Assembly: GCA_937138605.1 (NCBI GenBank)
Contig: CAKZPH010000147.1
Location: forward strand, 1 to 41,603
DNA: 41,603 nucleotides
Direction: 5' to 3'
Source of the DNA: an uncultured Ignavibacteriales bacterium
GTDB taxonomy: Bacteria; Bacteroidota; Ignavibacteria; Ch128b
How positions within the stretch are numbered: position 1 is the first letter of the stretch; every line of letters begins with the position of its first letter. Made by a program: the position numbers and the translations under genes. This document shows positions 361 to 29,727 of the stretch, in pieces. Under the pieces are notes generated by a model that worked only from the letters and a program-made list of their open reading frames with translations, had not been told where the DNA came from and ran no database searches.

Positions 361-374
361 ATTATTCTCTCAAT

Positions 375-908: not shown

Positions 909-909
909 T

Positions 910-1092: not shown

Positions 1093-1111
1093 AGTAAAAG
1101 TCCTCTATTAG

Positions 1112-1184
1112 CACGTCTGGAGGGACTCGAACCCCCAACCTGCGGTTTTGGAGACCGCTGCTCTACCAATTGAGCTACAGACGT
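1112..1184 (-). tRNA. tRNA-Trp (CCA)
   Basis: Acceptor ACGTCTG/CAGACGT, anticodon loop CTCCAAA, T-loop TTCGAGT; no encoded 3' CCA. Confidence 0.97.
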
Positions 1185-1188
1185 ATGC

Positions 1189-1338
1189 CTATTTCGTTTC
1201 TTTATGAATTGTATGTTTATTGCACCACTTGCAGTATTTCTTGAACTCTACTCTTCCTGAATGGAGTTTTTTGTTTTTTGTAGTGGTGTAATTTCTTCTT
1301 TTACATTCGGTACATTCTAAAGTAATAATTTCTCTCAT
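1189..1338 (-). CDS. rpmG: 50S ribosomal protein L33, zinc-ribbon form, 49 aa (below ORF-track cutoff)
   Basis: Manual translation [49 protein letters not shown]; two CxxC motifs. Confidence 0.97.
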
Positions 1339-1357
1339 TTCAACTTCTCAAATTTAG

Positions 1358-1430
<73 letters not shown>

Positions 1431-1499
1431 AATTATTTCTACAAAAGATTTTCCGATCATTTGAAAACTTACGTTCACATTTAAATTTAATTTAGCTTG

Positions 1500-1572
1500 A
1501 GCGGGAGACGGGACTCGAACCCGCGACCAACAGCTTGGAAGGCTGTGACTCTGCCAACTGAGTTACTCCCGC
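1500..1572 (-). tRNA. tRNA-Gly (TCC)
   Basis: Acceptor GCGGGAG/CTCCCGC, U73, anticodon TCC, T-loop TTCGAGT. Confidence 0.97.
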
Positions 1573-1650
1573 ATTACTATAAAATCAAAACACTTCTGAA
1601 ATAATATTAACAAGTTTTAAGACTCGACTAAAAATTTAAAAGAACTAATG

Positions 1651-1735
1651 TGGGTAGCGAGGGATTCGAACCCCCTAAGGCGTTAAGCCAACGGATTTAC
1701 AGTCCGCCCCGGCTCTCCAACTCCGGCGTCTACCC
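1651..1735 (-). tRNA. tRNA-Tyr (GTA), long variable arm, non-canonical core (C8, A7-G66)
   Basis: GGGTAGACGCCGGAGTTGGAGAGCCGGGGCGGACTGTAAATCCGTTGGCTTAACGCCTTAGGGGGTTCGAATCCCTCGCTACCCA; anticodon loop CTGTAAA, A73. Confidence 0.93.
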
Positions 1736-1761
1736 ATTATTATTCCACATCTTAGCTTGCA

Positions 1762-1798
1762 ATTATAGTTATTTTAATCAATATGTGCAAGAAGTCAA
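1762..1798 (-). promoter_or_regulatory. Putative promoter(s) of the tRNA/rpmG/secE/nusG/rplK operon
   Basis: Minus strand TTGCAC-17nt-TATAAT (1790-1762) and overlapping TTGACT-16nt-TAAAAT (1798-1771), ending 26 nt upstream of tRNA-Tyr. Confidence 0.6.
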
Positions 1799-2621
1799 TA
1801 TTCGATATCAAATTTTCTAGTTTTTTAATTATTAATAGTAATTTTAAAGCGAAAAAGTGATAAGCACAACAGAAAAACTTGTAAAGAAAAACACTAACTT
1901 AATATTGAACCTTAAATTAATAATGAAAAATACTATATAGTATTCAACAGCTTGCAATTAAGAATCCTCTAATCATTTAAAGATTAATATTAAATCAAAA
2001 ATTAGTTTTTTAATCGAGTAAAAGTTTATGCGAATTAAATTCTGGAAAATTTTATTTAACGAGTTACTTATATTTTATAGAAGACAATTTTAATAAAGTA
2101 TAGATCACGTGCTTTAAGCAGTCAAACATTAAAATCAATAAATAATTTAAGTTTTATAATTTATTTGAAGAGAAGTAGTTATTTTCAAGTTAAATTCTGT
2201 TTTAATTTACTTTATTCCAAAAGGATTAAGAAAATTTTTAGCTAAAAAAACTTTCAAAGATCTAAGTGAATCAACTGTATAGGACTATAAATATAAAGAT
2301 TCTTCATTATCCCAAATGAATTCTTGAAAAATAATCACGTTTTATTTTTTATTACATTCATGTGATCTGATTAATAAAAAAGTCAGTTCTCCAAAACCAT
2401 TGTAAAATAGTACTTGTTTAGCGTGTGCTATTTAATGTATTAATAGTTTATAATAAGTTAGGTGATAATAATTTGCTCGTTATGGAAACGTAAAGTTTTT
2501 GGAAACATTAAATTGATCAAAGAGATAATCTCACTTACAATAAATTAAATTTAGTAGTTAATAAAACTAATTGATACTAAGTTAACTAATAACGAGATTC
2601 ATATTACAATTTTTATAAATA

Positions 2622-4163
2622 TTAGAGTAATCCCCAATGGCTCCGATCAAGACTTCTATATTGAATTGCTTCACTTAAATGATGGGGCAATATTCTCTCA
2701 CTTCCATCAAGATCAGCAATGGTCCTTGAAACCTTTAGAATTCGATCATAAGCTCTAGCTGAAAGCCCAAGTTTTGTAATTGCATTTTTAAGAAGTTCTT
2801 CTCCAATAGAGTCGATAACACAAAATCTTTTTACAAGCTTTGAATTCATACTCGCATTAGAATAAATACCGGGATGTTCCTTAAATCTTCTTAATTGAAT
2901 TTCTCTTGCACGAGTCACTCTTTCACGAATTGTTTTTGAACTTTCGCCCTGAGATGATGAGAGTAATTCTTTAAACTTCACGGCAGGAACCTCCACATGA
3001 ATATCTATTCTATCTAATAATGGCCCAGAAATTTTTGCAACATACTTTTGAATCTGTTGAAGAGTACATGTACATTCTTTGGTTGGATCGGTATAATAAC
3101 CGCATGGACATGGATTCAATGCCGCTAACAACATGAAGTTTGCAGGAAATTCTAAAGTCAATTTTGACCGACTAATTGTAACCTTTCTATCTTCTAATGG
3201 TTGACGTAAAACTTCTAAAACGTTTTTCTTAAATTCAGGTAGCTCATCAAGAAAAAGAACTCCATTATGGGCAAGTGACACTTCACCTGGTCTAGGATAA
3301 GTACCACCCCCTATTAAAGCTACATCTGATGAAGTATGATGGGGATTTCGAAATGGCCTATTAGTAACAATCGGACTATCATGTTTTAATAGGCCAGCGA
3401 CTGAATGTATTTTTGTAGTCTCTAAAGCTTCTTCAAAAGTAAGAGTTGGAAGGATAGTAGGTAGCCTTCGAGCTAACATTGTTTTGCCTGAGCCAGGTGG
3501 ACCAATCATTAAAATATTGTGAGCACCCGCTGCTGCAACTTCTAAAGCTCGTTTAACATTTTCTTGACCTTTAACCTCAGAAAAATCAACAGGATACTCA
3601 CTTGAACTTTCAAAAATCTTTTTAATATCAGTCTTAACGGGATTGTAGTTACTTATATTGTTTATAATTTCGATACAATGTGTCAAACTCGTTGCTGAAT
3701 AAATATCTAAACCATGCACAATACTGGCTTCAATAGCATTCTTCTCAGGTAGAATAACACCTTTGAAACCAGCACTTTTAGCTTTTATACATATTGGAAG
3801 AACTCCATGGATTGGTCTTAAGTAACCATCAAGAGAAAGTTCCCCTAGAATTAAATAGTCAGAGAGATTATTAAACTCAAAATTTTGGTTAGCTTGAAGA
3901 ATACTTAGAGCAATAGGTAAATCAAATGCACTCCCTTCTTTCTTTACATCTGCAGGAGCAAGATTGATTGTAATTTTTTTACTTGGAAAGGTAAAACCTG
4001 AATTTTTAATTGCTGCTATGACTCTTTCCCTGCTTTCCTTCACAGTATTATCAGGTAAACCTACTATAATAAAATTGGGTAGTTGATTCTCAATGTGTAT
4101 TTCAACTTCCACTATTAAAGCATCGATTCCAAAAGTTGCAGCAGAGTATACCTTGCCAAACAT
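2622..4163 (-). CDS. comM: YifB/ComM family Mg-chelatase-like AAA+ ATPase
   Basis: INLAPADVKKEGSAFDLPIA, Walker A GPPGSGKT, PGEVSLAHNGVLFLDELPEF, NPCPCG, SGPLLDRID, LSARAYDRILKVSRTIADL. Confidence 0.93.
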   Translation of the reverse strand: MFGKVYSAATFGIDALIVEVEIHIENQLPNFIIVGLPDNTVKESRERVIAAIKNSGFTFPSKKITINLAPADVKKEGSAFDLPIALSILQANQNFEFNNLSDYLILGELSLDGYLRPIHGVLPICIKAKSAGFKGVILPEKNAIEASIVHGLDIYSATSLTHCIEIINNISNYNPVKTDIKKIFESSSEYPVDFSEVKGQENVKRALEVAAAGAHNILMIGPPGSGKTMLARRLPTILPTLTFEEALETTKIHSVAGLLKHDSPIVTNRPFRNPHHTSSDVALIGGGTYPRPGEVSLAHNGVLFLDELPEFKKNVLEVLRQPLEDRKVTISRSKLTLEFPANFMLLAALNPCPCGYYTDPTKECTCTLQQIQKYVAKISGPLLDRIDIHVEVPAVKFKELLSSSQGESSKTIRERVTRAREIQLRRFKEHPGIYSNASMNSKLVKRFCVIDSIGEELLKNAITKLGLSARAYDRILKVSRTIADLDGSERILPHHLSEAIQYRSLDRSHWGLL

Positions 4164-10602: not shown

Positions 10603-12591
10603 TTATCTTAGAATGGTTAATTTTTTGGTAACGTTGTAGTCTTGCGATAAAAATCGATAAAAATAAACTCCACTAGAAAGCACCCGTCCAGTGTCATCCG
10701 TTCCATCCCAAACAAACTCGTGGTTATTCCCTCTACTTACACCCACATCTTTCAATAGTGTCTTCACTTTTCTTCCAAGGACATCATAAATTTCGAGTGT
10801 AATCCATTGCTGAGTAGGTAAATCAAATCTAAACCTGGTTATACCATTAAATGGATTCGGGTAATTCTGATACAATACAAAATCTCTAACAACGTTTAAA
10901 CTCTTTCTAGGTGCAAAAACTTTTTTAGATAATAAATGGAATGAATAGTTTAACTCACTTTTTTCAGGAATTCTCACCGTACGCGTTGGTGTATGATAAG
11001 TAAAATAAAACTTGTATACATCATCTTCATTTAGTTCATTTGGTAGTTTTACTTCAAACTTAAAATTATTACCTAAATCTAACAGTTCAATTTCTTTATA
11101 GATACTATTATCCTCAGAAAAAATAACAACGTTTAATTTGTTTATTGTCTGATTTTCGAAGATCGTTTTAAGCAAATAGTAACCATCATTTCGTTTCACA
11201 ATTAAAGGAAAAGACAACGCTTCTTTTGCACGAGCTATTCCCCAACCATAAACAGTATCAGGTTTATCAGATTGACTTGCTGTTAATCGAATCGCATCCC
11301 TTACTTGATATTGATTGATTTCTGAATAATGAGAAATTAAAAGTCCTACAATTCCAGCTACTATTGGTGTTGAAGCAGAAGTACCCGATGCATAACTATA
11401 AGATGCAAAACCATTAGTTGTTGCCGTGTAAACAGACATTCCCATAGCACAAACATCAGGTTTAATTCTTCCATCACTAGTGGGACCACGCGAAGAAAAA
11501 GGCGCTATAATTGACGAAGACGAAACTGCCCCAACAGCTAGCACATAACGAGCATCCGCAGGAGAAACAATATATTTCCAAGGACTCATAAATTCATTTC
11601 CAGCTGCTGTTACTGTAACAACACCACGAACAAATGCTGAATCAACTGCCCTGGCAACAATTGTAGTTGAACCGTTCATGTCTTGATATGTGTAGCTTTC
11701 ATTTGGATCATCAAACTCACTATAGCCTAGTGAGCTACTTGTCACATCAACTCCTTGTTGTTCCATCCAAATTAATGCTCTAGCATAATTATCCTCTTCA
11801 ACACGCCTTTCACTTCTGATATCTTCGGTTTTTGCAAGAATATAATTTGCGTCATAAGCAACACCAATAAGACGACCATCTTTTTTCCCTGCAACTATAC
11901 TCATAATCTGAGTTCCATGAGCATCCTGTCCTGCTACATCACCTGGTTGATTAGCTGTAATGGAATCACCAAATATAAAATCATATTCAGCGATAACTTT
12001 GGTACTCATTAAAGCTTCATGAGTTTTCCAGCGAAAACCTGTATCAAGTAATCCAATCAAAACATTTTCGCCTCTTATTCCCCGTGAGTGAACCTCAGGA
12101 ATTTGAGAAAGATTATTTTGATCAAAAGATGGTCCATAATTATTCGTTAATTTGTTTAATTCAAATAATGGAGCAATTGATTCGTCTCTATATGATGACT
12201 TAAAAACTTTTACTTTTTCCACTTTTTCCACAAAAGGCAGACTTGAAATTAATTGTTTTTGATTTTCATCCAAATAAGCAGATACTGCATTAAACCATGT
12301 TAATTCGTGAACGATTTGCACATTTAACTCTTTTAAGTTATCGATGTAAGGTTTGTAAATAAAATAATCGCCGTAAGAAAAAATTTCATTACCTAAAGCT
12401 TTCTTTCTTCTTTCAATTGCCTTATTAGAAAAAGTTTTTAAGAGTTCAGCTTCAATGATTTCTTTTTTGAAATATTTTTTATCACTTTCGCCTTTGTCTT
12501 TGAAATAAATAAGATACTTTGTTTGGGTAAAAGCAACTACAGGCAATAATAAAAAGAGGACATTAAAAATAATTTTCAAGTAAAATTTCAT
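10603..12591 (-). CDS. S8 (subtilisin-like) serine peptidase with T9SS-type C-terminal sorting domain
   Basis: Signal peptide; triad LLDTGF / HGTQ / GTSASTP; AAGNE; C-terminal LYQNYPNPFN...IYDVLGRKV...WDG...SGVYFY...KKLTILR. Confidence 0.92.
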   Translation of the reverse strand: MKFYLKIIFNVLFLLLPVVAFTQTKYLIYFKDKGESDKKYFKKEIIEAELLKTFSNKAIERRKKALGNEIFSYGDYFIYKPYIDNLKELNVQIVHELTWFNAVSAYLDENQKQLISSLPFVEKVEKVKVFKSSYRDESIAPLFELNKLTNNYGPSFDQNNLSQIPEVHSRGIRGENVLIGLLDTGFRWKTHEALMSTKVIAEYDFIFGDSITANQPGDVAGQDAHGTQIMSIVAGKKDGRLIGVAYDANYILAKTEDIRSERRVEEDNYARALIWMEQQGVDVTSSSLGYSEFDDPNESYTYQDMNGSTTIVARAVDSAFVRGVVTVTAAGNEFMSPWKYIVSPADARYVLAVGAVSSSSIIAPFSSRGPTSDGRIKPDVCAMGMSVYTATTNGFASYSYASGTSASTPIVAGIVGLLISHYSEINQYQVRDAIRLTASQSDKPDTVYGWGIARAKEALSFPLIVKRNDGYYLLKTIFENQTINKLNVVIFSEDNSIYKEIELLDLGNNFKFEVKLPNELNEDDVYKFYFTYHTPTRTVRIPEKSELNYSFHLLSKKVFAPRKSLNVVRDFVLYQNYPNPFNGITRFRFDLPTQQWITLEIYDVLGRKVKTLLKDVGVSRGNNHEFVWDGTDDTGRVLSSGVYFYRFLSQDYNVTKKLTILR

Positions 12592-19005: not shown

Positions 19006-19305
19006 ATGATAGCAGTATTTTTGTTCTACATTCATTTGATTTTTGGTTTATATGTATTTACAAAAAGATGGCAGGAAGAAGGTCTAAGTGCAGCTTTTCT
19101 AATACTAATATTTGTGGGAATTATTTTTTCAGTTGGATGGACACTTTCTTACTTGATTGCGTCATTAATTTTTCCGACCGAAGGTTTAGGAAAATTTTAT
19201 AATCGTGATACAATTTCACTTACAATAGTCACCATTTTTGAATATTTCTTTTACAATAATTACTTCAGGGGAAAATTAAAAAAAGAAAAAGCGCCTCTAT
19301 TATAA
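19006..19305 (+). CDS. Small hypothetical membrane protein
   Basis: 99 aa, about three TM segments, 18 nt after the previous gene. Confidence 0.7.
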   Translation: MIAVFLFYIHLIFGLYVFTKRWQEEGLSAAFLILIFVGIIFSVGWTLSYLIASLIFPTEGLGKFYNRDTISLTIVTIFEYFFYNNYFRGKLKKEKAPLL

Positions 19306-19306
19306 A

Positions 19307-19984
19307 TTACTCAAGCCTGTATGGTATAGTGATAATAACCTGCTGTTCAAATTGAATTTGGTTTGGTCTTAAAGACTCAAATTTCCATGTCTTAAGTGCT
19401 TGAATAGCAGCATCTTCAAGTTGAGTGTCCGCTTTAATTAAAGGAATGGGTGAAACTACTGAACCATCAGGTAAAATTGTAAATTTAATTTTGATGTCTA
19501 TTTCTTTCTGAACACCCGGAGGAAATTTGGGTTTCTCCCATCTTAAAATTTTTCTCGTTCCACGACCACCCCAATCAAAGCTATATCCACTGGAACCAAT
19601 GGGCGATTCACCTGCTGGATTTTTTGAAATGTTATTACTCAAATTTTCTGATTGATTTACTCGTTCGAATTTCTCCTTTTTCTTTTCCTGCTGTTCTTTT
19701 TTCTTTAAGATTTCATCAAATTCTTGTTTTACTCTGGGTTTTTCAATGTTATCCTCTTTTTTCTCAATAGATTCATTTTTATCATCTATGGCTTTTTCCT
19801 TTTGAGCAATAAGAGGATCTGAACCCGGCTTACCACTTCCCGGTGCTCCAAAATCAATTGTGACGTATTCGGGTACTACCGGTAATGTTCCAAGTGTAAT
19901 AAAAGAAAATATTATCAATAGAATTACATGAAGAAAAGAAGAAGCAATATATGTGAATCTAAGATCTGTAAAAAATCTTTTCAT
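19307..19984 (-). CDS. TonB-family energy transducer
   Basis: N-terminal TM with SxxxH (SSFLH), charged linker, C-terminal KFTILPDGSV...LEDAAIQALKTWKF...ITIPYRL. Confidence 0.88.
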   Translation of the reverse strand: MKRFFTDLRFTYIASSFLHVILLIIFSFITLGTLPVVPEYVTIDFGAPGSGKPGSDPLIAQKEKAIDDKNESIEKKEDNIEKPRVKQEFDEILKKKEQQEKKKEKFERVNQSENLSNNISKNPAGESPIGSSGYSFDWGGRGTRKILRWEKPKFPPGVQKEIDIKIKFTILPDGSVVSPIPLIKADTQLEDAAIQALKTWKFESLRPNQIQFEQQVIITIPYRLE

Positions 19985-20382
19985 AGCGTTTCTTTTTCGG
20001 TCGCAATTGTAAACTTATTAACCCCCGTTCCTTTTGCAATATCTATTACTTTTATCAATATATCTATTGATACTTCTTTATCAGCTTTAATGACTAAATT
20101 TTTATCAAGCTGATTTTTTTGCTGTAAAATTTTTTCACCAAGTTCAGCAAGACTTATCTTATCACTACCGAAATAAATATCATTTGTTTTAGTAATTGTT
20201 ACAATAAACTGATTTTCATTTACAGTATCTGAAGTTTCAGATTTTGGAAGTTTAACCTGTACACCCGTTGTAATTACAAATTGAGAAGTCAGCAAGAAGA
20301 AGATGAGCAAAAGCATCACTATATCTGTTAATGAAGAATAATTAAAAGCGGTGAGCAATTTTCTCTCTGATTCAAACTTCAT
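19981..20382 (-). CDS. exbD: ExbD/TolR biopolymer transport protein
   Basis: SLTDIVMLLLIFFLLT, VKLPKS, IKADKEV; ATG 20382 preferred over 20421 to limit overlap with exbB. Confidence 0.9.
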   Translation of the reverse strand: MKFESERKLLTAFNYSSLTDIVMLLLIFFLLTSQFVITTGVQVKLPKSETSDTVNENQFIVTITKTNDIYFGSDKISLAELGEKILQQKNQLDKNLVIKADKEVSIDILIKVIDIAKGTGVNKFTIATEKETL

Positions 20383-21010
20383 GTTTAACTCTACCAAATT
20401 CTTTTTCGTAAAGTACATCAATGAAATCTGTAGAAGTAATTTCCATTTCAGATATAAGTTTATTTATGCGTGTTACAAAATAATTATAGAATAGATAGGC
20501 AATTATTCCTACTGACAAACCAAAAGCAGTAGTAATTAACGCTTCCCAAATTCCACCGGCAAGATCACTAGGCGAAGCATTTCCACCGAGGGTTTCTATT
20601 TTGATAAAAGCGGAGATCATTCCCGTTACCGTTCCGAGAAATCCTAAAAGCGGAGCTACACCTGAGATGGTTGCGAGAATTGAAAGACCCTTTTCCAATT
20701 TATAAATTTCCTGTTTACCAGCACTTTCAATCGATTCTTTAATTCTTTCCATTCCAAAGTGATACTTTGTGAGTCCTTTACGAACAATATTGGCAATTGG
20801 TGAGTTAAATTCAGAACAGTAGTTGATCGCTTCGACAATGTCACCTTTCTTCATGTGTTGACGAATCTGAATCATAAATCGTGGAACGTTTACAGATGCT
20901 TGTCTTAATATAAAGTATCTTTCGATAACAATTGCGAAAGTTATTACCGAACATAAAAGAATGGGCCACATAAGCAGCCCTCCTTTCAAGAAACCAGAAA
21001 GTAAATCCAT
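20372..21010 (-). CDS. exbB: MotA/TolQ/ExbB proton channel
   Basis: GGLLMWPI, APLLGFLGTVTGMI, GGIWEALITTAFGL. Confidence 0.93.
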   Translation of the reverse strand: MDLLSGFLKGGLLMWPILLCSVITFAIVIERYFILRQASVNVPRFMIQIRQHMKKGDIVEAINYCSEFNSPIANIVRKGLTKYHFGMERIKESIESAGKQEIYKLEKGLSILATISGVAPLLGFLGTVTGMISAFIKIETLGGNASPSDLAGGIWEALITTAFGLSVGIIAYLFYNYFVTRINKLISEMEITSTDFIDVLYEKEFGRVKHEV

Positions 21011-21025
21011 ATATATTTCCTATTT

Positions 21026-22417
21026 CTATTTCCTGTTTACGTAAATATCTTCTCGTTTTAGTAACAATCTTAAATTGTGGTAATCTTTCTCCAAGTCAGT
21101 TTCATTTAAGTAATAGCCAACTTTAACACGATACATCAAACCAAATTCTGGGACGTTTGCCGATTCAACGAATGATCGATATCCTTTGTTCCTCAAATTT
21201 CTTGCAAATGAAAGGGCAAACTTTTCATCTTTTGTGGAACTTACCTGTATGTAAAAGTCGCCTTGAGCTTGTGCTTTCCTAGTAGAAGCAACTCTTTCTT
21301 TTACGACTTTACGCTTAATAGGCGTTTTTTTAGGTTCAACTGTTGAAATTAATTTAGACGTAGTTGTGGTTTCTTTTTTAGTCAAATCCTGGCTCTTAGT
21401 TGCTTTCTCTTCAACTTTTTCAGTTTCCGGTTGTTCTATAATCATACCTCGCTTTTCTTTTAACTCGCTTTCAGATGGTGTTTGGGCAAATTCATCAGGA
21501 GCAATTATAATCTTTTTTTGATCTGGACTTACTGGACGTTTTTCAACTACTACTGGTGGTGCAGTTTCTTTTTTTCTTTCAATCACCGGTTCTTTTTTTA
21601 TTTGTGTTACATCAGTGCTTAATGCCCAATATATTCCAACGCCAATAATTCCAAGAAACAGTAAAACTAAAGTGATCCACAAAGCTGGTGATCCTTCTCG
21701 TCTAATTAAATCTGAACTTGTCATCGAAGATAAATTCGGTGGAGGTGTATAAGACCCAGATCCAACTGATCCGGATGTTAAATCTTCCCCAAATGTAAAT
21801 TTAGGTTTTTCAGTGCCTTTATCTGGCATTTTTGTTACCTCCTCGTTTTTAGTTGTAAAATCTTTTTCAGAAATTTTTAATTCTTCTAATAACCCCTTTT
21901 CAGCATCTTTTTCAGTTGAATCTATGGATGACAAAATCTCCTCACCTATGCTCAACTCGTCTGATACTTCCCCCTCGAAATCGAAAAGTCCAACTTTTTC
22001 TTCTTCCAGGGAAATTTCCTCAGGACCCATCTCTGCTTCGGTAACTCTCTCTTTTTCCATCTCAGGTGAGATAATAGAAATTTTCTTTTCTATTTCTCTT
22101 TCTGAGCCTGGTTTCAAAATCTTAGGTTCTTCAGCAGCGTATTTAATATTTATTTCTTTAGCTAATTTTGATGAAGGTGAAAATCTTACAGTAAATTTCT
22201 CTGGTATTTCAATCTCTTTACCAAGAAGGGCACTATATCTCTTTGTAGCTTTAGTAATTTTGGGTAGAAAGGTTCCAAAATTCGATAAAAATACTTTTTC
22301 ACCATCTCTAAGTGCAACAATAATATGCTCAATAAGTTTTTGAAAAACTAATTCTACCTCTTTAATACTGGCACCTGTTTTTGTACTTACTTTTTCAATG
22401 AATTCAATCTTGTTCAT
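21026..22417 (-). CDS. HU-domain / acidic linker / TM / SPOR-domain protein
   Basis: N-terminal HU fold (MNKIEFIEKVS...GEKVFLSNFGTF...VRFSPSSKL), single TM (LWITLVLLFLGIIGVGIYW), C-terminal SPOR (FYIQVSS...LRNKGY...YRVKVG). Confidence 0.85.
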   Translation of the reverse strand: MNKIEFIEKVSTKTGASIKEVELVFQKLIEHIIVALRDGEKVFLSNFGTFLPKITKATKRYSALLGKEIEIPEKFTVRFSPSSKLAKEINIKYAAEEPKILKPGSEREIEKKISIISPEMEKERVTEAEMGPEEISLEEEKVGLFDFEGEVSDELSIGEEILSSIDSTEKDAEKGLLEELKISEKDFTTKNEEVTKMPDKGTEKPKFTFGEDLTSGSVGSGSYTPPPNLSSMTSSDLIRREGSPALWITLVLLFLGIIGVGIYWALSTDVTQIKKEPVIERKKETAPPVVVEKRPVSPDQKKIIIAPDEFAQTPSESELKEKRGMIIEQPETEKVEEKATKSQDLTKKETTTTSKLISTVEPKKTPIKRKVVKERVASTRKAQAQGDFYIQVSSTKDEKFALSFARNLRNKGYRSFVESANVPEFGLMYRVKVGYYLNETDLEKDYHNLRLLLKREDIYVNRK

Positions 22418-22686
22418 TCTTCAGTCTTAAAAATATTTTTAGATGGTTTGAAAATAAAAACCTCCTTAGGAGGTAATAACACTAAGTCACCAGTTTGAGG
22501 ATTAATGCCACGCTTCTCTTTTTTAAATTTTCTTTCAAACTTACCAAAATTATTAAATGTAATTGAACCATCTACTTTAACAACTTCGATTATCGTATCG
22601 AGTATACATTCAATTATTTCCTCAACTTTCTTCTGAGTAAGGTTGGTCTCGCTAGAAATAATTTTTTTTAAATCATCTTTTGTCAT
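22414..22686 (-). CDS. HU/IHF-family DNA-binding protein
   Basis: MTKDDL, NFGKF, GINPQTG, FKPSK; 90 aa. Confidence 0.92.
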   Translation of the reverse strand: MTKDDLKKIISSETNLTQKKVEEIIECILDTIIEVVKVDGSITFNNFGKFERKFKKEKRGINPQTGDLVLLPPKEVFIFKPSKNIFKTEE

Positions 22687-24293
22687 TAAAACCTCAACTT
22701 TAAAATTAACTCAAAATCAAAAGGTCTTTGTAAATAATTAAACCATCGTTCGTTATTTTTGTTCAATATATTGTTTAGTCCAAGTTCCAAATCAATTAAA
22801 TCAGAAATCATATAATTAAAACCAATGCTCAAATTCAGTGTCGGGTCAATACTAATTTGATTGTTTATATCTGCATAACTACGTGAATAATACAAAAAAC
22901 TTAATCTTAAATAAAGTGGAAATTCAAATTTATACGTATAAGTTAAGTTTAGATTTAGGTTTGGTGTGTGAGGTGTATTTTTCGTGTTATCCTTGAGTTT
23001 TGAAGAGATATAATTAATATTCAAAATGAAATTACCTGACTTGTTTAAATCAATAAAGAGACTTGTATTCAAGTCTAATACTTCAACATTACGTTTTACT
23101 ATATTAAAAAATCCCTGCACAGAATTTTTGGGAATAAAAATATTTTTACCCGCCACATCATAACGAGCAAATTCCAATTTTATGTTACTTAAATGGGTAA
23201 AATATATTATTGTGCTAAACCCAAATTTATTTTTTATTCTTTCAATTGAATAATTGTAATTAACTGTATCTAAATAAGGATTTATTTTCCAAAGTTGTGA
23301 AGGTGTGTAGTTTAACAATTTGTTTGAATAAAACAGTGAAAGTGACCAGTAATCACTTAATCCAATACCAAGACTTGCACTTGGAGCTAAAAATTGCTTA
23401 CCATCATCTCTTTCAGATTGATAATCCAGGCCAATAATAATGTTTATAATTTTAAGTAACCGTCTTAAATACATTTCTCCATTGGCATTTAAAATTAAGG
23501 TATTGAATGTTTTCCAAGTTGACCTTTTATAGAGATATGGATTTACGTTTGCAGTTATTTCAAAATGTTCAAATGTCGATTTTAACTTTCCATAAGGTGA
23601 AAAAGTAAAGAATGAAAATCCACTTCTACTTAAACTTTGATATTCAATTTGCCCACCCAAAGATAAGTTGAATTCTCTCCAAAAAAGATTCTCAAATTCA
23701 GATTTAATTTGAAATTTAGAATTAACTTCTTTTCCAACTGAATCAGGATTCAATGCCTTGAAGTTATAATAACTGAATCGAGTAAAATCAGTTCGTAACT
23801 TTAAACGGGCTGGTGGTTCTCCTTCTTTTTCAATTATTAACGAACCTAATGCATTTAAATTTAATAACGAATGCCTTGAATACTTTACATAATCACGAAT
23901 GTTTTCAAAATCTCCACCAAAATTAATATCAACCGAACTTATCTTTCCAGAATAGAAAACTTCGGTTTTTGGTAATGAATACAAACCAGCAACCAATTTA
24001 GCCCTAGCATAATATTTTTTTGAAGTATCTAATATTGATGGTTGTAATTTTGTTGGGTCTGTTAAACCTTCAAGTTTTAAATCCTCTACTCCTATTCGAG
24101 ATAAAATAAATTCTGGAGATAATGGAGTAATTAATTCTGGAGTTGCCTTTTCTTGAACAGGCACATCAACTTGAGCTTGACCTGTTATAACAAAATCAGG
24201 AAGCTCTATTTCTGGAATTCTGGATCTAACGGTATCTTGTTGTGTGAATAATACTGAAAATAAAACTAAGTGTAAGACTAAAACCTTTTTCAT
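22686..24293 (-). CDS. Outer-membrane beta-barrel, TonB-dependent-receptor-like
   Basis: Signal peptide, TonB-box-like ELPDFVITG, amphipathic strands, C-terminal LNNILNK...LILKLRF. Confidence 0.72.
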   Translation of the reverse strand: MKKVLVLHLVLFSVLFTQQDTVRSRIPEIELPDFVITGQAQVDVPVQEKATPELITPLSPEFILSRIGVEDLKLEGLTDPTKLQPSILDTSKKYYARAKLVAGLYSLPKTEVFYSGKISSVDINFGGDFENIRDYVKYSRHSLLNLNALGSLIIEKEGEPPARLKLRTDFTRFSYYNFKALNPDSVGKEVNSKFQIKSEFENLFWREFNLSLGGQIEYQSLSRSGFSFFTFSPYGKLKSTFEHFEITANVNPYLYKRSTWKTFNTLILNANGEMYLRRLLKIINIIIGLDYQSERDDGKQFLAPSASLGIGLSDYWSLSLFYSNKLLNYTPSQLWKINPYLDTVNYNYSIERIKNKFGFSTIIYFTHLSNIKLEFARYDVAGKNIFIPKNSVQGFFNIVKRNVEVLDLNTSLFIDLNKSGNFILNINYISSKLKDNTKNTPHTPNLNLNLTYTYKFEFPLYLRLSFLYYSRSYADINNQISIDPTLNLSIGFNYMISDLIDLELGLNNILNKNNERWFNYLQRPFDFELILKLRF

Positions 24294-27262
24294 CTTAAAC
24301 GCCTCAGCCTATTTTTTGCTTCTTTACCAAGTTGACCACTCGAATCCAACTTAATAACTTCATTATAGAATTCTCTCGCTTTCACCTTGTTTTTCAAAGC
24401 TTCATAACTTTCAGCAATTTTGAAAAAGCCCTTTATTAACCAATCAGTGTGTCCAGCAAAAGCATATCTTAATTTCAAAAATTCTGAAATAGCGTCGTTA
24501 TATTTTTTTTGTCTAAAATAAATTTCACCGATAAGATATTGACCTTCTGCACCAAATTCATCATTACGTAGTTCAACCACCTTCTTAAAATAATTAATTG
24601 CTGAATCAGGTCTAACTTCCCTTTCCAATTTTCCAATTTCAAATAAAGCTCGGGAATAAAAACCCGACTCTTGATATGTTTTAATTATTTTATCGAATAT
24701 AATTTTTGCTTGAGCTACTTCACCTTGTTCTAAATGACTTTTTGCTAACCAATAATTTGCTTCCGCCACTAAATTTGATTGTGAATAATTGTTTATGAGC
24801 GATTGATAACTCTTAATAGCAGCATCTAAATCCCCTTTCAAACGAAAAATATTTCCCGTTTCCAGAATGGCATCGTCTGTTAACTCATCTCCAGAATAAT
24901 TTCGAATAACTATTGAAAGATTATAAAGTGCATCATCATACGATTTAAGTTGAATGAATGCTTTGGCAATTGAATAATATGCAATGGTTACTAATGAACT
25001 TGTCGGGAAGAAAGAGATAAACTCACGATAACTTGCAATAGCTTCTTGAAATCTTCTCTGAGATAAATACAGATCTCCTTTTTTAATTAAAAGCCTGTCC
25101 AGGTTTTTAACATTTGGATTGGAGTATACAAATTTTGTAATAGCATCAGCAGCCTCTTCAATCTTACCTTGAGAAACATACGCATATTGAATACCATTTA
25201 TTGCATCAATTACAAAATCTGAATTAGGATAATCCCTTAAAACAATATTATAGTTTTCAATTGCTTTATCATATTTACCTTGATTAAAATATGCATCACC
25301 AATTGAATAATAGACTAAGGGTATAATCGGGGACATAGAATGATTTACTATGACTTTTTGATAATCTTCTATACTTGAATCGTACTTACCTAATTTAAAT
25401 TTAATCCAACCAATTAAGTATTGAACTTCATCAGCGTATTTTGAGAAAGGATACTTTCTTAAGAGCTCCATTAATTCGTGGATTGCTCCATCTAAATTTC
25501 CAGCACGATATAATGCCTGAGCTAATTGATACGAAACATAATCACTTGACTTTGCTTCTGGATCCGAAAAATAACTCCTATAAATCTCAATAGCCATTTT
25601 AAAGTTTTTCAACCCGTAATAAGCATCAGCAAGACGCAACTTTACCTCATTTAATAAAGGAGAATAAGTAAATTTCTCTAAAAACTGTTGAGCATATTTT
25701 ACTACGTTCGAATAGTCTTTTCTATTAAAATTCGAATATATAATTCCATACAAAGATAATTCTTTAAGGTCGTCATCCTGAGTTGTCTTTATAACCTGCT
25801 CATAGTTTTTTATGGCCTCACTATACTTGTTTTGAGCAAATAAACATTCGGCAAGATAAAATCTTACTTTGTCTATTTCTCCCGGATTTTTAAGCGTTAA
25901 AATTCTATTCAAAACTGAAGTAGCTACTACGAAGTTGTTCAAGTAATAATTTGCAGTTGCAAGTCCAAGAAGAGCTAAGGTATAATGATTGTTATTTTCA
26001 TTAAGGAGACTAATAGCAATTTCATAGTGAGTTTTCGCCAAGGCAAAATTTTTTCTTTCAAGAGCAATTGCACCAAGAACAATGTTTGAATTCGATTTAA
26101 TCGTGTCATCCGTAGAATCTTCTAATAAGCTCAATAAATAACTTTCAGCAACTTGAAATCTCTTTAATTCAAAATAAATGATTCCAATTTGATATTTTGC
26201 ATGAGTAGAATATATGTGATCAGGATATTTTTCAATATATGATTTGAATTCTTCAATGGCTTGGATATTTTGACTCATATTTCTACTGATGTAACCAAGC
26301 CAATAGCTTGATCTTTCAGCTAATGAATCATTGCCTAAACTTAAATCCTTTAATATTCGATGAGTTTGTTCGAACCTATTTTGTTGATAAAATGACCATG
26401 CTAAACCATATTTAGATGGTCTCACCATTTTTGAATTAGGAAATCTATTAATAACATTTTGAAATTCAACTTGAGCGTCGTAAAATCTCCCCAATTTATA
26501 ATAACTATTAGCAAGAATATAGTAAGCCTCTGCAAGGTCTAGATTTGAGAGTTGTTTGATTTTTGGATCTGTTAATCTTTGAACTGCTCTTTGGTAATTA
26601 CCTAGATTATAATATGTGAACGCTACTCGTACCAACGCCATTGGAGTAATTTGAGATTCAGGAAATTCATTTAAAAGCTTATCATAGTAAATTTCGGCTC
26701 TGTCGTAAAGTTTTTTTTGTTCATAAACGAAACCTAAAGAAAAAAGAGTATGATCAATTTTTGAATTTGTTTTGGAATTATTTAATGCTTCCAGATAACA
26801 TCTTTCTGCAGCAACAATATCGTTTAATGCCATATAAACTTCACCAAGCCAATAGTAAGCAAGTCCATAATATTTACTGAAAGTCAGCTCATTGATAAAT
26901 TTTTGTAAGTAATTTTTAGCGACATTATAGTTCCCAGCTTTATGATTAATTTGACCTAAACGAAGAAGAGCTAAATCATAATTTCTATCATGTGGAAATT
27001 TGATTCGATAATTTTCAAATTCAAGATTTGCCTCGAAAAATTCATTCTGTCTAAACTTAATTTCACCTAGAAGAAAATGTATTTGTGCCCGATTCTCTAT
27101 AGAGAAGGATTCATCATTTTTTAACTCTTCCAAAATTTTATATGCTTCACTAAGATGACCTCGAGTATAAAGGTTTATCGCTCTTTCGTATAGGTCAAAT
27201 CTAACTTGAGAGTATGATGGTAAAAAAATTAACAGAAGTAATAATACAATTAGGCGTTTCAT
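24290..27262 (-). CDS. Large exported tetratricopeptide-repeat protein (BamD/CpoB-like repeats)
   Basis: Signal peptide; many A-x-Y-x-L-G/A...A...Y/F...YP-x-S repeats over 990 aa. Confidence 0.9.
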   Translation of the reverse strand: MKRLIVLLLLLIFLPSYSQVRFDLYERAINLYTRGHLSEAYKILEELKNDESFSIENRAQIHFLLGEIKFRQNEFFEANLEFENYRIKFPHDRNYDLALLRLGQINHKAGNYNVAKNYLQKFINELTFSKYYGLAYYWLGEVYMALNDIVAAERCYLEALNNSKTNSKIDHTLFSLGFVYEQKKLYDRAEIYYDKLLNEFPESQITPMALVRVAFTYYNLGNYQRAVQRLTDPKIKQLSNLDLAEAYYILANSYYKLGRFYDAQVEFQNVINRFPNSKMVRPSKYGLAWSFYQQNRFEQTHRILKDLSLGNDSLAERSSYWLGYISRNMSQNIQAIEEFKSYIEKYPDHIYSTHAKYQIGIIYFELKRFQVAESYLLSLLEDSTDDTIKSNSNIVLGAIALERKNFALAKTHYEIAISLLNENNNHYTLALLGLATANYYLNNFVVATSVLNRILTLKNPGEIDKVRFYLAECLFAQNKYSEAIKNYEQVIKTTQDDDLKELSLYGIIYSNFNRKDYSNVVKYAQQFLEKFTYSPLLNEVKLRLADAYYGLKNFKMAIEIYRSYFSDPEAKSSDYVSYQLAQALYRAGNLDGAIHELMELLRKYPFSKYADEVQYLIGWIKFKLGKYDSSIEDYQKVIVNHSMSPIIPLVYYSIGDAYFNQGKYDKAIENYNIVLRDYPNSDFVIDAINGIQYAYVSQGKIEEAADAITKFVYSNPNVKNLDRLLIKKGDLYLSQRRFQEAIASYREFISFFPTSSLVTIAYYSIAKAFIQLKSYDDALYNLSIVIRNYSGDELTDDAILETGNIFRLKGDLDAAIKSYQSLINNYSQSNLVAEANYWLAKSHLEQGEVAQAKIIFDKIIKTYQESGFYSRALFEIGKLEREVRPDSAINYFKKVVELRNDEFGAEGQYLIGEIYFRQKKYNDAISEFLKLRYAFAGHTDWLIKGFFKIAESYEALKNKVKAREFYNEVIKLDSSGQLGKEAKNRLRRLR

Positions 27263-28737
27263 AAAATCAAAAATAGAAAATAGATTTTACTAAGTAAAAG
27301 AACTGATGAGAAGTTCACAAAATCGTTATTAATAAACGTCAATCCTTTATAATATTCAGTTGAAGAGTCACAATGAATTAATTTCTCCGTCATTTTCCAG
27401 CATTTTTTACAGCGATAAGTCACCTGAAGTGTTGCACCAAGAAAACTATCGAACAAATTTCCTAAAGTTGCAAAGATGTTGATAATAATAAGATCACTTA
27501 TAAGAAACTGATGAAAAAGCATTGCACAAAAAGTAATGGTAATTGATCCCAGCAACCCACCCAAAGTACCAACTAACGAAATTCCACCAGAAATACCTGC
27601 CTCAACCCGAGCGAAATTTGTGATTAAAAAGATGTTCTTAGCGAAAAGAGTTCCAATTTCTGTTGACCATGTGTCAGCCATTGCGATAGCAATGGAGAGG
27701 ATATAAATGAAATACCAGTTTGTTAAATCAGGAAAAAGATAATTCAATAAGCTAATCATCAAAGGAACGCCACCATTAGCAAGAACTTGAAACATATCAC
27801 GCTTACTTCCTTTATTAAAAACGTCATTTAATTCTTTACTTCGATAAAACTCGCTGAATTTAGAAAGAACAGAAGATAAAATAAAAAATGTTAAAATCGG
27901 TATTGTCCACGTCCAGCTTCCCAAACCAAAAATGAACAAGGCAAGAATAAAGGTTACAAACGATCCACTTAAAGAAAGCAATTTATATTTCAATGATATC
28001 AATGAAATTAAAAAGGCAAGAAAAGAAGCTAATAAGAAATTAGGGAGATCAATTCCTTTATGAAAAAATATAAACCCTATGAAGGCTAAAACTACAGGTA
28101 AGTAAAGATTATCTGTGCCTTTTGAACTTAATGCCTCGACTATTCCTGCAATAATTGAAGTCATAAGAGCAAGAAATAAAAAACTTAAAAAATCATACTT
28201 AATAAAATTCAAATAATCATAGAACGTATACCTCAGGAAAATCAGTACTAGTAAACTCGAAATAATTGTGGCAAATAAACCATTAAAAGTTTTAGGTTCA
28301 CCGTGTATTTTAAGATAACGTTTAATTTTTGCACCTGTACCAACTAATCCAGCGGCAGCATCGCTAATCGAAAAAATAAAAAAGCTAAAGGCAAGAATAT
28401 ATTTGTTTACATTCCAGAAAATCAGAACAATAATCAAAAAAGCAAGAGGATAATAAAAAATTCCCAAATGAGTTGTCAGATTACCGTCAATTTGTTTTAA
28501 TATTTTTCTTTTGATTAAAATGTAATTTAATAATGAAAAAACAAGTCCAATAAAAACCATAATTCCGAAAGAATTGATCAAAAAAGTTGCAAGTATAACA
28601 ACAAACCCGGTTGTTATATGAAGAGTTTTTCTAGCTACTATTTTAGAAATAACCTCTTTTCTAGCTAAGAATTCCAACAAAACAATTAGAAGAATAGTAA
28701 TACCAGAGAGAATTAATAAATTAGTATATTCCTTCAT
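27259..28737 (-). CDS. Phytol/dolichol-kinase-like domain fused to DUF92 (TMEM19/VTE6-like) membrane domain
   Basis: N-half RKTLH, SISDAAAGLVG, KTFNG, GTDNLYLP; C-half QVLANGG, ADTWSTEIG, GISGGIS, DSFLGATLQ, NNDFVNF. Confidence 0.85.
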   Translation of the reverse strand: MKEYTNLLILSGITILLIVLLEFLARKEVISKIVARKTLHITTGFVVILATFLINSFGIMVFIGLVFSLLNYILIKRKILKQIDGNLTTHLGIFYYPLAFLIIVLIFWNVNKYILAFSFFIFSISDAAAGLVGTGAKIKRYLKIHGEPKTFNGLFATIISSLLVLIFLRYTFYDYLNFIKYDFLSFLFLALMTSIIAGIVEALSSKGTDNLYLPVVLAFIGFIFFHKGIDLPNFLLASFLAFLISLISLKYKLLSLSGSFVTFILALFIFGLGSWTWTIPILTFFILSSVLSKFSEFYRSKELNDVFNKGSKRDMFQVLANGGVPLMISLLNYLFPDLTNWYFIYILSIAIAMADTWSTEIGTLFAKNIFLITNFARVEAGISGGISLVGTLGGLLGSITITFCAMLFHQFLISDLIIINIFATLGNLFDSFLGATLQVTYRCKKCWKMTEKLIHCDSSTEYYKGLTFINNDFVNFSSVLLLSKIYFLFLIL

Positions 28738-28789: not shown

Positions 28790-28817
28790 AAACTGAAACC
28801 GCCTCTTTTCGAGGCGG
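28790..28817 (-). terminator. Probable intrinsic terminator after the small TPR gene
   Basis: Minus strand CCGCCTC-GAAAA-GAGGCGG (28817-28799) followed by TTTCAGTTTT. Confidence 0.75.
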
Positions 28818-28827
28818 CTAGAGGATT

Positions 28828-29589
28828 TTATTGTTTAGGGAGGTTCTTCAACTCGTAATCACAAACTTGTCTATAGGTAGGATCCTTCTTACCTTCTTCA
28901 AAGGCAACTTTTGCTTCGCTAAATTTACCTAAAAATTTTAACGCTAAACCTTTATAGTAATATATCCCACCTTTTGGAATAGAACTTCTGTATTTAAGGG
29001 CATTATCAGCTGCAGAAATCGCATCATCGTATTTCCCTTTTTCTATGTATGAACGGGCAAGAGCAAGATAAGCCGCATCATTTTTAGGCTGGTATTTTAA
29101 AGCCTTGTTTAGATTTTCAATTGCTTTATCGTACTCAAAATTTTTAAGATTAATATCAGCAAGTTTTGTGTAAGAGAGCGATATATTTTTCTCAACTTGA
29201 GATTTTAATTGTGCATTTTTTGTCAGTTCAAGAGTTTTAGAAAAGTGATTAATTGCTTCATCATAATTTCCTCGAGTAAATTCAAGTGTACCAAGTGCAT
29301 TGTAAGCCAAATCAAAATCCGGTTTTAATTCAATTACTTGTTTTAAGTCAGAATATGCTTCACTTAATTTATTTTGTTTTCTTAAAGCAATACCTTTTTG
29401 ATAAAGAATACGATAATCTTTTTGTATCTCAAGTGCTTTGTTATATGCTAAAATAGCTGCAGCGATATTTCCTTCTTTTAATTTTTGATTTCCTTCATTA
29501 TAAAACTTTGCTGCATCCGGGTTCATATCTTGAGCAAAAATTACTGTTACAAATAAAAACAATAAAAGATGAGCCTTTATGTATTTCAT
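28828..29589 (-). CDS. Exported TPR protein
   Basis: Signal peptide (VIFAQ), about six TPR motifs, AAGGAG ribosome-binding site upstream. Confidence 0.88.
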   Translation of the reverse strand: MKYIKAHLLLFLFVTVIFAQDMNPDAAKFYNEGNQKLKEGNIAAAILAYNKALEIQKDYRILYQKGIALRKQNKLSEAYSDLKQVIELKPDFDLAYNALGTLEFTRGNYDEAINHFSKTLELTKNAQLKSQVEKNISLSYTKLADINLKNFEYDKAIENLNKALKYQPKNDAAYLALARSYIEKGKYDDAISAADNALKYRSSIPKGGIYYYKGLALKFLGKFSEAKVAFEEGKKDPTYRQVCDYELKNLPKQ

Positions 29590-29644
29590 AACTATCTCCT
29601 TTTTATAAATTTAACGGGAAAACTTAACTCTACAATAAAATTAG

Positions 29645-29727
29645 TGCGGAAGGCGGGACTTGAACCCGCACGCCTACGCGGCGCCACCCCCTCAAGATGG
29701 TGTGTCTACCAATTCCACCACTTCCGC
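29645..29727 (-). tRNA. tRNA-Leu (GAG)
   Basis: Acceptor GCGGAAG/CTTCCGC, A73, anticodon loop TTGAGGG, long variable arm, T-loop TTCAAGT. Confidence 0.96.

Follow-up and report, generated by a model that had tools for sequence, protein, structure and literature searches.

A Ton-type motor, a plug-less outer-membrane barrel and a SPOR protein encoded in one gene cluster across Bacteroidota: a candidate counterpart of Tol-Pal

The window analysed here is the whole 41,603-nucleotide (nt) stretch of contig CAKZPH010000147.1 from an uncultured Ignavibacteriales bacterium (assembly GCA_937138605.1; 302 contigs, 98.4% complete), and its subject is a cluster of minus-strand genes that brings together a long TPR protein, an outer-membrane barrel, two HU proteins, one of them joined to a SPOR domain through a transmembrane (TM) helix, and an ExbB-ExbD-TonB-like motor. 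A first-pass annotation, made from the letters alone, had described seven co-oriented genes with overlapping or near-abutting junctions at 19307-27262, and both coordinates and spacings were reproduced: seven minus-strand open reading frames (ORFs), all in the same orientation, are separated, from the TPR gene to the TonB-like gene, by -4, -1, -4, +15, -11 and -4 nt, the -11 junction between ExbB and ExbD presupposing that ExbD starts at the ATG at 20382. Overlooked at that stage was an eighth gene, encoding a DUF92 membrane protein (27259-28737), which overlaps the TPR gene by 4 nt. The domain calls for TPR, HU, HU plus SPOR, MotA_ExbB, ExbD and TonB_C were all borne out by Pfam, TonB_C marginally, and the protein between the TPR and HU genes did turn out to be a barrel in two AlphaFold models and in fold searches. 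The cluster comprises the following features:

27259..28737, minus strand: DUF92 membrane protein, 492 amino acids (aa; PF01940, 202 bits), probable first gene of the operon
24290..27262, minus strand: TPR protein, 990 aa (TPR_6, 253 bits)
22686..24293, minus strand: outer-membrane barrel, 535 aa (AlphaFold models and fold searches)
24180..24215, minus strand: TonB-box-like motif PEIELPDFVITG, barrel residues 27-38
22414..22686, minus strand: stand-alone HU, 90 aa (PF00216, 82.8 bits)
21026..22417, minus strand: HU-TM-SPOR protein, 463 aa (Bac_DNA_binding, 64 bits; SPOR, 30 bits)
20372..21010, minus strand: ExbB/TolQ-family protein, 212 aa (PF01618, 120 bits)
19981..20382, minus strand: ExbD/TolR-family protein, 133 aa from the ATG at 20382 (PF02472, 101 bits; longest ORF 19981-20421)
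19307..19984, minus strand: TonB-like protein, 225 aa (TonB_C, 26.0 bits against a cut-off of 24.6)

Conservation of the gene cluster

The arrangement of these genes is, judging by synteny, not a product of chance, because their order is kept in all nine related loci as well as in distant families. In the nine loci taken from Ignavibacteria-named records, the order DUF92-TPR-barrel-HU-HU-SPOR-ExbB-ExbD-TonB-like is preserved in every case as far as the contigs reach; ExbB is present in eight of them and ExbD and the TonB-like gene in seven, the rest stopping at a contig edge. The wider survey used a sample of 401 genomes of the phylum, in which family and genus labels are codes and counts over related genomes are not independent. 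At E<=1e-8, a broad barrel profile that includes distant members matched 324 of the 401 genomes, representing 165 of 180 genera, and usually gave a single match per genome; twelve of the matched genomes had contributed sequences to the profile. A narrow profile, which recovered only 124 of the 401 genomes, was discarded as an undercount in the light of the broad one.

The barrel gene lies upstream of ExbB, on the same contig and strand, in all 107 genomes that appear on both top-150 lists, that is, in the overlap of the 150 best barrel and the 150 best ExbB places, which are best-scoring and related to one another; the gap between the two genes spans 694-2589 nt, with a median of 1966 nt. When 31 distant loci (11 plus 20) were scanned with Pfam, the gene filling this gap encoded a SPOR domain in 22, an HU-type domain (PF00216, HU-CCDC81 or HU-HIG) was detected in 12, and in most of these loci a gene for a TPR protein of ~1000 aa stood directly upstream of the barrel. 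Close relatives of two of the distant barrels carry Balneola/Gracilimonas and Hymenobacter names and are labelled 'hypothetical protein', 'TonB-dependent receptor' or 'porin family protein'. Co-occurrence outside close relatives, on which the first-pass annotation had made its interpretation hinge, is thus what the synteny in distant families reveals.

On the evidence of gene content, the conserved core of the module is the barrel, the TM-SPOR protein, ExbB, ExbD and the TonB-like protein, usually together with the TPR protein, and HU and DUF92 are lineage additions. DUF92 was found upstream of the module only in Ignavibacteria relatives, not in the other classes examined; it is full-length in eight of the nine Ignavibacteria-named loci and present as fragments in L020. 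The DUF92 domain occupies residues 240-481 of the 492-aa protein, which has many hydrophobic segments, and the N-terminal half (residues 1-230) forms an extra polytopic membrane region without a Pfam match, bringing the protein to about twice the usual length of the domain. The exported 990-aa TPR protein begins with a signal-like segment without a lipobox Cys; it is hit by many of the TPR families in Pfam and matches the tol_pal_ybgF model TIGR02795 with 313 bits in 11 stretches (cut-off 90.1); it is a generic TPR protein with repeats of the YbgF/CpoB and BamD type. Some loci hold the module in part or not at all: L077 and L078 carry TPR and barrel genes without an adjacent motor, and in L100 (genome G167) ExbB-ExbD-TonB stands behind an ATP-binding cassette (ABC) gene, with the barrel elsewhere. 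L073 (G016) was dropped, its match being weak and the module absent.

Further genes recur around some of the distant loci. A gene for a ComM/YifB-type Mg-chelatase-like ATPase stands immediately 3' of ExbD, with no TonB-like gene following, in L071, L075 and L104 (convergently in L071 and L075); a gene of this type also occurs in the window (2622-4163, minus strand), ~15 kb from the module. The DNA polymerase III delta gene holA is the next gene upstream of the module, or of just its SPOR-ExbB part, in L076, L105 and L106, and L105 reads holA-SPOR-ExbB-TonB-like with no barrel nearby. A membrane gene of the lysyl-phosphatidylglycerol-synthase type stands before the barrel gene in L072 and close to ExbB in L106, and an S41 (Ctp-type) peptidase gene follows the TonB-like gene in L072 (noted region L072 13759-15135); both types of neighbour are envelope-related.

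The barrel, its motor and the SPOR protein

The 535-aa protein matches no Pfam or NCBIfam family. It consists of a signal peptide, a flexible N-terminal extension of ~70 residues and a 22-strand barrel (residues 93-535) ending in a C-terminal Phe. A first AlphaFold model, built on 14 relatives, had a predicted local distance difference test (pLDDT) score of 75.6, and an AlphaFold2 model on a 142-sequence alignment reached a pLDDT of 90.0 and a predicted template modelling (pTM) score of 0.81, with the same picture. Residues 93-535 are modelled confidently; the blocks of residues 20-92 score a pLDDT of only 43-65 and adopt no plug-like fold. A Foldseek search with the model returned 273 matches at E<=0.001, TonB-dependent transporters throughout the matches listed. 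In VIA-align, a search independent of Foldseek, the first 33 rows were TonB-dependent transporters without exception, headed by Escherichia coli BtuB (1nqe_A; Z 24.1, root-mean-square deviation 2.9 A over 388 residues), and model residues 93-535 were laid onto residues 135-594 of that chain, i.e. onto its 22-strand barrel and not its plug. Neighbours in the ESM Atlas are automatically named 'TonB-dependent receptor family protein' and have no Pfam family in common. The plug domain PF07715 has no match in the protein, in which only residues 39-92 lie between motif and barrel, and the barrel domain model PF00593 has no match in it either, while weakly matching two distant homologues. By its modelled fold, the 535-aa protein is a transporter-type barrel; of the two domains by which that family is defined, it lacks the plug.

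The barrel family is populous: at E<=0.001 it has 780 cluster representatives out of 1.84 billion, and almost all are ~530 aa long. An LPxFxIxG-type pattern falls inside the N-terminal 70 residues of 128 out of 130 full-length representatives. In the 142-sequence alignment, whose members share ~20% identity with the query, P32 is the sole invariant column and E30, L31, F34, V35, I36 and G38 are at least 90% conserved, so that the ELPDFVITG strand emerges as the most constrained part of a fast-evolving barrel protein. The boxes that precede the plug in the genome's own 19 plug-bearing transporters (e.g. LEEVVVTG, LKEIVVTS, LETIVVEA and LPPVVVQG) follow the same pattern. The label 'TonB-box-like', which the motif had already received on inspection, therefore rests on data, and by its sequence ELPDFVITG may be a segment to which a TonB-type domain binds. 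Barrels of other classes are homologous to the window barrel from end to end (hhalign probability 100, E 3e-42, 521 columns) and keep an alternating beta-type motif (EIEIRG, AEIVIRK) near the mature N-terminus.

The module ExbB has three hydrophobic segments and is ~90% identical in close relatives, and ExbD has one TM segment containing an Asp, which we take to be the family-defining residue. We adopted the ATG at 20382 as the ExbD start because the alignments of relatives begin there (from residues 5-14 on, most from 12-14) and because of the codon itself. The 225-aa TonB-like protein combines an N-terminal TM helix bearing Ser15-x3-His19, a K/E-rich linker without a Pro-rich tract and a TonB-type C-terminal domain. 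Its Ser-x3-His pair, found in 11 of 13 aligned homologues, is presumably important for coupling, as is the Asp in the TM segment of ExbD. The C-terminus of the TonB-like profile matches the E. coli TonB C-terminal domain (2gsk_B) at E 9e-7, and the N-terminus and linker match TolA only at E 0.06.

The genome contains three MotA/ExbB genes and two TonB_C genes. The other TonB (contig C243) is canonical and Pro-rich, with 72 bits, and an ExbB-ExbD-ExbD set is encoded on contig C190, the module having a single ExbD. Since this separate TonB and the ExbB-ExbD-ExbD set can serve the 19 plug-bearing transporters, the motor of the module looks, from gene content, dedicated to the module, and the possibility raised at the outset that it serves only ordinary receptors loses its footing. 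Could the three genes nevertheless be a general-purpose Ton motor that merely stands beside unrelated envelope genes? ExbB, ExbD and TonB_C are generic families, and the TonB_C score exceeds its cut-off narrowly, but the genes overlap tightly, barrel and ExbB are linked in 107 of 107 genomes, a canonical set exists elsewhere in the genome, and the TonB-like protein is conserved along with the module. We regard this explanation as highly improbable; it is in fact already contradicted by the synteny. A third motor set, on contig C240 (G000; 1-3866), is distinct from both the module and the C190 set: an ExbB-family protein, cut by the contig start and having a long charged C-terminal tail, is followed by ExbD, a 438-aa protein and a 498-aa protein.

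Two class-mate families retain the module in a different form. Their loci L080 (G157) and L081 (G237) read TPR-barrel-SPOR-TonB-like, without ExbB and ExbD between, and the families have only weak matches to module-type ExbB (about 1e-18 to 1e-24). The two of the 13 aligned TonB-like proteins that lack the TM His are exactly those of L080 and L081, and their barrels retain the motif. By sequence, these modules look like a motor-less, purely tethering form, and they would fit a tether with a dispensable motor better than energised transport.

This last point bears on the idea that the module is, at heart, a specialised TonB-dependent transport system, in which a solute or polymer (a small sugar, a fragment of the wall or a product for export, for instance) would pass through the plug-less barrel. 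The barrel's own ExbBD-TonB set would gate or energise it, and the TPR and SPOR proteins would play an accessory part. The transporter fold and TonB-box pattern of the barrel, the Ton lineage of the motor with its TonB-type C-terminal domain, and the database labels of relatives, often 'TonB-dependent receptor', all agree with such a role, as does a report, in the available part of a preprint, that short barrels with reduced or absent plugs import sugars in Bacteroides and that hollow-barrel cells are viable (bioRxiv 10.1101/2025.11.13.688124). We nonetheless consider transport unlikely. Niche-specific nutrient receptors do not behave like this barrel, which is mostly single-copy, spans 165 of 180 genera and sits in fixed synteny; no carbohydrate-active enzyme (CAZyme), SusD, ABC importer or catabolic gene was found in the window or in the loci examined; two lineages retain the module without ExbBD; and the partnership with SPOR and TPR proteins, as well as the complementarity with Tol-Pal described below, would be left unexplained.

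The 463-aa protein starts with an HU domain (residues 1-90; 22148-22417), followed by an acidic linker, a TM helix (residues 245-266; 21620-21685), a K/E/T/P-rich linker in the periplasmic part and a SPOR domain (residues 384-450; 21068-21268). As it lacks a signal peptide, its HU domain should be cytoplasmic and its SPOR domain periplasmic, as in FtsN-type proteins; the ftsN model TIGR02223 itself matches only the SPOR end, with 37.1 bits against a cut-off of 107.65. The 90-aa HU is cytoplasmic, and it scores 51-55 bits with the IHF alpha and beta models, below their cut-offs. It retains the RGINPQTG arm motif, which we take to be the DNA-binding mark of HU, and the fused HU is without it. 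The genome has four HU-family genes, the stand-alone one among them. The fused HU matches PF00216 and HU-HIG only; the HU-CCDC81 models PF18174 and PF18175 have no match anywhere in the genome, and module homologues in other classes do match them. Bacteroides thetaiotaomicron, too, has an HU-CCDC81 gene. An antisense ORF within the HU-SPOR gene (21813-22343, plus strand) was rejected as spurious, its sequence being of low complexity. In L089 (3633-4651, minus strand) two ORFs take the place of the gap gene, one of 257 aa and one of 83 aa that contains SPOR, through a possible frameshift or a genuine split.

Is the cluster then primarily a nucleoid-envelope tether that serves chromosome segregation, with the HU pair holding DNA, SPOR holding the wall, and motor and barrel being secondary? 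Two HU genes in the cluster, one of them fused to a TM helix and SPOR, invite this thought, as does the presence of the presumed DNA-binding arm motif in the stand-alone HU and its absence from the fused one. The available part of a computational study describes the architecture of HU, disordered segment, TM helix and periplasmic SPOR or LysM, with a stand-alone HU gene beside the fused one, and proposes a probable heterodimer between the operon partners and a nucleoid-envelope tether (Burroughs et al. 2017; PMC5499826). According to the same source, SPOR forms always have two HU domains and single-HU forms pair with LysM, and its main text contains no occurrence of TonB, ExbB, TPR or an outer-membrane partner (Burroughs et al. 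2017). Tethering of the nucleoid as the primary role nevertheless strikes us as improbable: an HU-type domain was detected in 12 of the 31 distant loci, against 22 for SPOR; the SPOR proteins of several class-mates have no detectable HU; of the loci examined, only those of close relatives have the stand-alone HU gene; and barrel, motif and motor would be left unexplained. The same 12 against 22 tell against the HU-nucleoid link as a constant part of the module, as the first-pass annotation had it; by domain content this link is a lineage-variable add-on. Nor did any sign support the DNA or macromolecule uptake route proposed there, and uptake and secretion of DNA were both rejected, the HU domains having no signal peptide and lying on the cytoplasmic side, and the operon having no competence-type genes.

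Relation to Tol-Pal and the proposed tether

No tolB, pal, uptake, catabolic or nutrient-use gene lies anywhere in the 41.6-kb window, which extends the earlier remark that none is adjacent to the cluster. A search of the genome for a separate tol-pal locus, suggested at the same time, likewise recovered neither protein over its cut-off: TolB (TIGR02800) gave 27 matches, the best with 79.4 bits against 343, and for Pal (TIGR02802) the sole OmpA-domain gene is cut by a contig edge and lies away from the cluster. None of five complete class-mate genomes has TolB over its cut-off, and none has Pal (best score 104.6 bits, cut-off 125.35). In the sample of 401 genomes, one family, f22, has TolB at E<=1e-50 in 86 of its 87 members; at that threshold it was found in none of the 314 genomes outside the family. 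The one f22 locus examined reads TolR-TolA-TolB-Pal, with TolB (429 bits) and Pal (148 bits) both over their cut-offs. Matches of the barrel profile in f22 are weak (38 of 87 genomes, E 1e-9 to 1e-20) and, in five complete f22 genomes, partial, C-terminal and embedded in ORFs of 594-892 aa; they were rejected as module barrels, the two best having plug domains, as ordinary transporters do. Against the module ExbB, the top f22 match reaches only about 1e-20 to 1e-34. In this sample, then, the module and canonical Tol-Pal are mutually exclusive. A study from 2025 in MBE (PMC12204202) states, in the part available, that Bacteroidetes have no identifiable tol-pal loci or pal genes, and the term 'SPOR' does not occur in the study.

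What could take the place of Tol-Pal in these organisms? The domain identities, the barrel fold, the conservation of the motif, the phylum-wide synteny and a distribution complementary to that of TolB-Pal are established here. We give an even chance to the reading that the cluster encodes a tether coupled to the proton-motive force, which connects the outer membrane to the inner membrane and the wall, is aimed at the septum and stands in for Tol-Pal. The protein contacts, septal localisation and physiological role that it involves are what we infer, as follows. ExbB and the single ExbD would form a proton channel in the inner membrane, energising the 225-aa TonB-like protein through its Ser-x3-His TM helix, and the C-terminal domain of that protein would bind the N-terminal ELPDFVITG of the barrel by strand addition. 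As there is no plug to pull, force or simple tethering would load the barrel itself, and hence the outer membrane. The bitopic SPOR protein would bind septal peptidoglycan denuded by amidases and thereby place the complex at constriction sites, and a link to DNA might be added in this lineage by the cytoplasmic HU domain of the protein, which probably pairs with the 90-aa HU. The 990-aa CpoB/BamD-type TPR protein would scaffold the periplasmic part and, like CpoB, may be coupled to synthases of the wall. As we see it, the whole machine would do the job of Tol-Pal in other Gram-negative bacteria, namely keeping the outer membrane bound to the layers beneath it, especially where the cell divides.

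Several observations weigh against this stand-in tether. A 22-strand barrel without a plug would be expected to leave its pore open if nothing occupies the lumen, and the models show no such filler. The CpoB match of the TPR protein is not specific, since the BamD model is also over its cut-off (208 bits), and the TPR gene is not adjacent to the barrel in L072, L094, L095, L097, L099 and L103. In nine of the 31 distant loci the gap gene belongs to another family or to none, or the locus is not the module. The exclusivity with Tol-Pal rests on f22, one clade of three genera, and thus amounts to a single evolutionary contrast. Another protein, PorE, has been proposed, in the part of that study available, as the Bacteroidetes stand-in for Tol-Pal (PMC12204202). 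Finally, the motor points away from Tol in its ancestry. The NCBIfam scores of the module ExbB (111.6 bits with the TolQ model, 73.2 bits with the ExbB model, both below cut-off) are non-discriminating, and this scoring was dropped as a classifier because all three paralogues in the genome score higher with TolQ and none exceeds the cut-off. A maximum-likelihood tree of 38 ExbB/TolQ sequences (19 module ExbBs, 3 module-like, 2 paralogues of the genome and, from f22, 5 TolQ and 9 other ExbB-family proteins) was rooted at the midpoint and has two long-branched rows and one genome paralogue unresolved among module sequences. In it the five f22 TolQs are set apart on a long branch as a clade with full support, and the module ExbBs fall with ExbB-type paralogues, apart from f22 TolQ, with no common descent with Tol.

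Taken with the transporter-type fold of the barrel and the TonB_C type of the C-terminal domain, the ExbB tree says, as far as sequence relationships go, that the module descends from a Ton system; it may work like Tol-Pal, yet it is not a member of the Tol-Pal family. The suggestion in the first-pass annotation of a Tol-Pal analogue has therefore fared unevenly: the distribution, complementary to that of canonical TolB-Pal, speaks for it, whereas the motor has turned out to be of Ton and not of Tol ancestry.

These thoughts can be extended to the phylum. Somewhat more tentatively, with slightly less than an even chance, we propose that nearly the whole phylum (Ignavibacteria, Balneolaceae and Hymenobacter-type Bacteroidia) dispenses with Tol-Pal and uses a machine derived from a Ton system for nutrient uptake. 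In it a transporter that has lost its plug would serve purely as a handle on the outer membrane; a dedicated ExbBD-TonB set, parked by SPOR at the septum and, in some lineages, coupled by HU to the chromosome, would pull or hold this handle by way of the TonB box. If so, this would be a second, independent solution to outer-membrane constriction and the first natural case of a TonB box passing force to the membrane itself and not to a plug. No description of the whole unit was found in the literature searched, a search that left most subscription journals outside, and a survey of TonB proteins in Bacteroides thetaiotaomicron mentions no such locus, SPOR or TolA in the part available (bioRxiv version of PMC10662123).

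How Bacteroidota and their relatives attach the outer membrane and draw it inward at division is an open question, for which the cluster provides a genetically testable candidate. Nearly all of the sampled phylum has the module, and the one family with canonical Tol-Pal lacks it; the module points to a possible purpose for a TonB-dependent barrel that has a conserved TonB box but no plug, and it places the predicted HU-TM-SPOR tethers within a larger machine. Because the group includes gut and oral commensals as well as environmental polymer degraders, a group-specific system for envelope integrity would matter for vesicle formation, antibiotic permeability and studies of cell division.

Operon limits and comparison with known systems

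Two features upstream of the cluster help to delimit the operon:

28797..28819, minus strand: terminator-like hairpin (9-bp stem with 6 GC pairs and a T-rich tail; pattern scan only)
28828..29589, minus strand: exported TPR protein, 253 aa, upstream neighbour, present in 6 of 9 related loci

The hairpin separates the 253-aa TPR gene from DUF92; the pattern scan found 9 such sites in all against 4.3 expected. It is probably the upstream boundary of the operon, which would then run from 28737 to 19307, and the 253-aa TPR gene would probably be on a separate transcript. Directly upstream of that gene, on the same strand as the cluster, lies a tRNA-Leu(GAG) gene (29644-29727, minus strand). At the other end, a hydrophobic ORF of 99 aa without family (19006-19305, plus strand) runs towards the operon, its end lying 2 nt from the TonB-like stop codon, with no terminator-like hairpin found between the two. 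The other neighbours in the window are housekeeping genes (NusG, tRNAs, UvrA, LepA, signal peptidase, DnaB, LptD, Pst and PhoU).

The closest functional parallel is sought in the Tol-Pal system (TolQ-TolR-TolA-TolB-Pal-CpoB) of Proteobacteria and many other Gracilicutes. As proposed here, the module would share with it an inner-membrane proton motor, a TonB/TolA-type transducer that reaches an outer-membrane partner through a short N-terminal strand, and a link to the septal wall; TolB binds TolA through such a strand. The TPR protein of the module may be a partner of the CpoB type. The module differs in having neither TolB nor Pal: its partner is an integral 22-strand barrel instead of a soluble propeller plus a lipoprotein. 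Its ExbB lies outside the TolQ clade, SPOR and HU are built into the operon, and its transducer ends in a TonB_C domain, whereas the TolA of f22 has the TonB_2 type.

With the Ton system and its TonB-dependent transporters (BtuB; PDB 1nqe, 2gsk) the module has in common ExbB, ExbD, TonB_C, a barrel superposable on BtuB and the TonB-box pattern. Unlike those transporters, however, its barrel lacks a plug, with ~54 low-confidence residues between box and barrel; the module is mostly single-copy, in fixed synteny and without uptake genes nearby; and it has one ExbD, not two, and a K/E-rich linker in place of a Pro-rich one. The 'Type S' lidless barrels of Bacteroides glycan loci, known to us here from the available part of their description (bioRxiv 10.1101/2025.11.13.688124) and compared by description, are likewise short and transporter-type, mostly missed by the Pfam barrel and plug models and from the same phylum. 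They differ in belonging to CAZyme clusters and small-sugar import, and no dedicated motor, SPOR or TPR partner is reported for them in that part of the preprint.

Two further systems touch the module at single points. PorE, a fusion lipoprotein resembling CpoB, TolB, CPD and Pal, equally addresses the missing Tol-Pal of the phylum but, as far as the available text describes it, is a single lipoprotein tied to type IX secretion, with no motor, barrel or SPOR of its own (PMC12204202). The window itself encodes an S8 subtilase that has, at its C-terminus, a sorting domain for type IX secretion (10603-12591, minus strand), so that the organism probably has a type IX secretion system. The HU-CCDC81 and HU-TM-SPOR proteins, predicted computationally, have the same architecture of HU, disordered segment, TM helix and SPOR and an adjacent stand-alone HU, whereas here, by comparison with the part of that work available, a single HU is joined to SPOR and there is no HU-CCDC81 match (Burroughs, Kaur, Zhang and Aravind 2017; PMC5499826). 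Lastly, FtsN, DamX and DedD of E. coli resemble the 463-aa protein in their single TM helix with the N-terminus inside, long periplasmic linker and C-terminal SPOR domain; what sets the module's protein apart is that its cytoplasmic part is an HU domain and that its gene stands within a motor operon.

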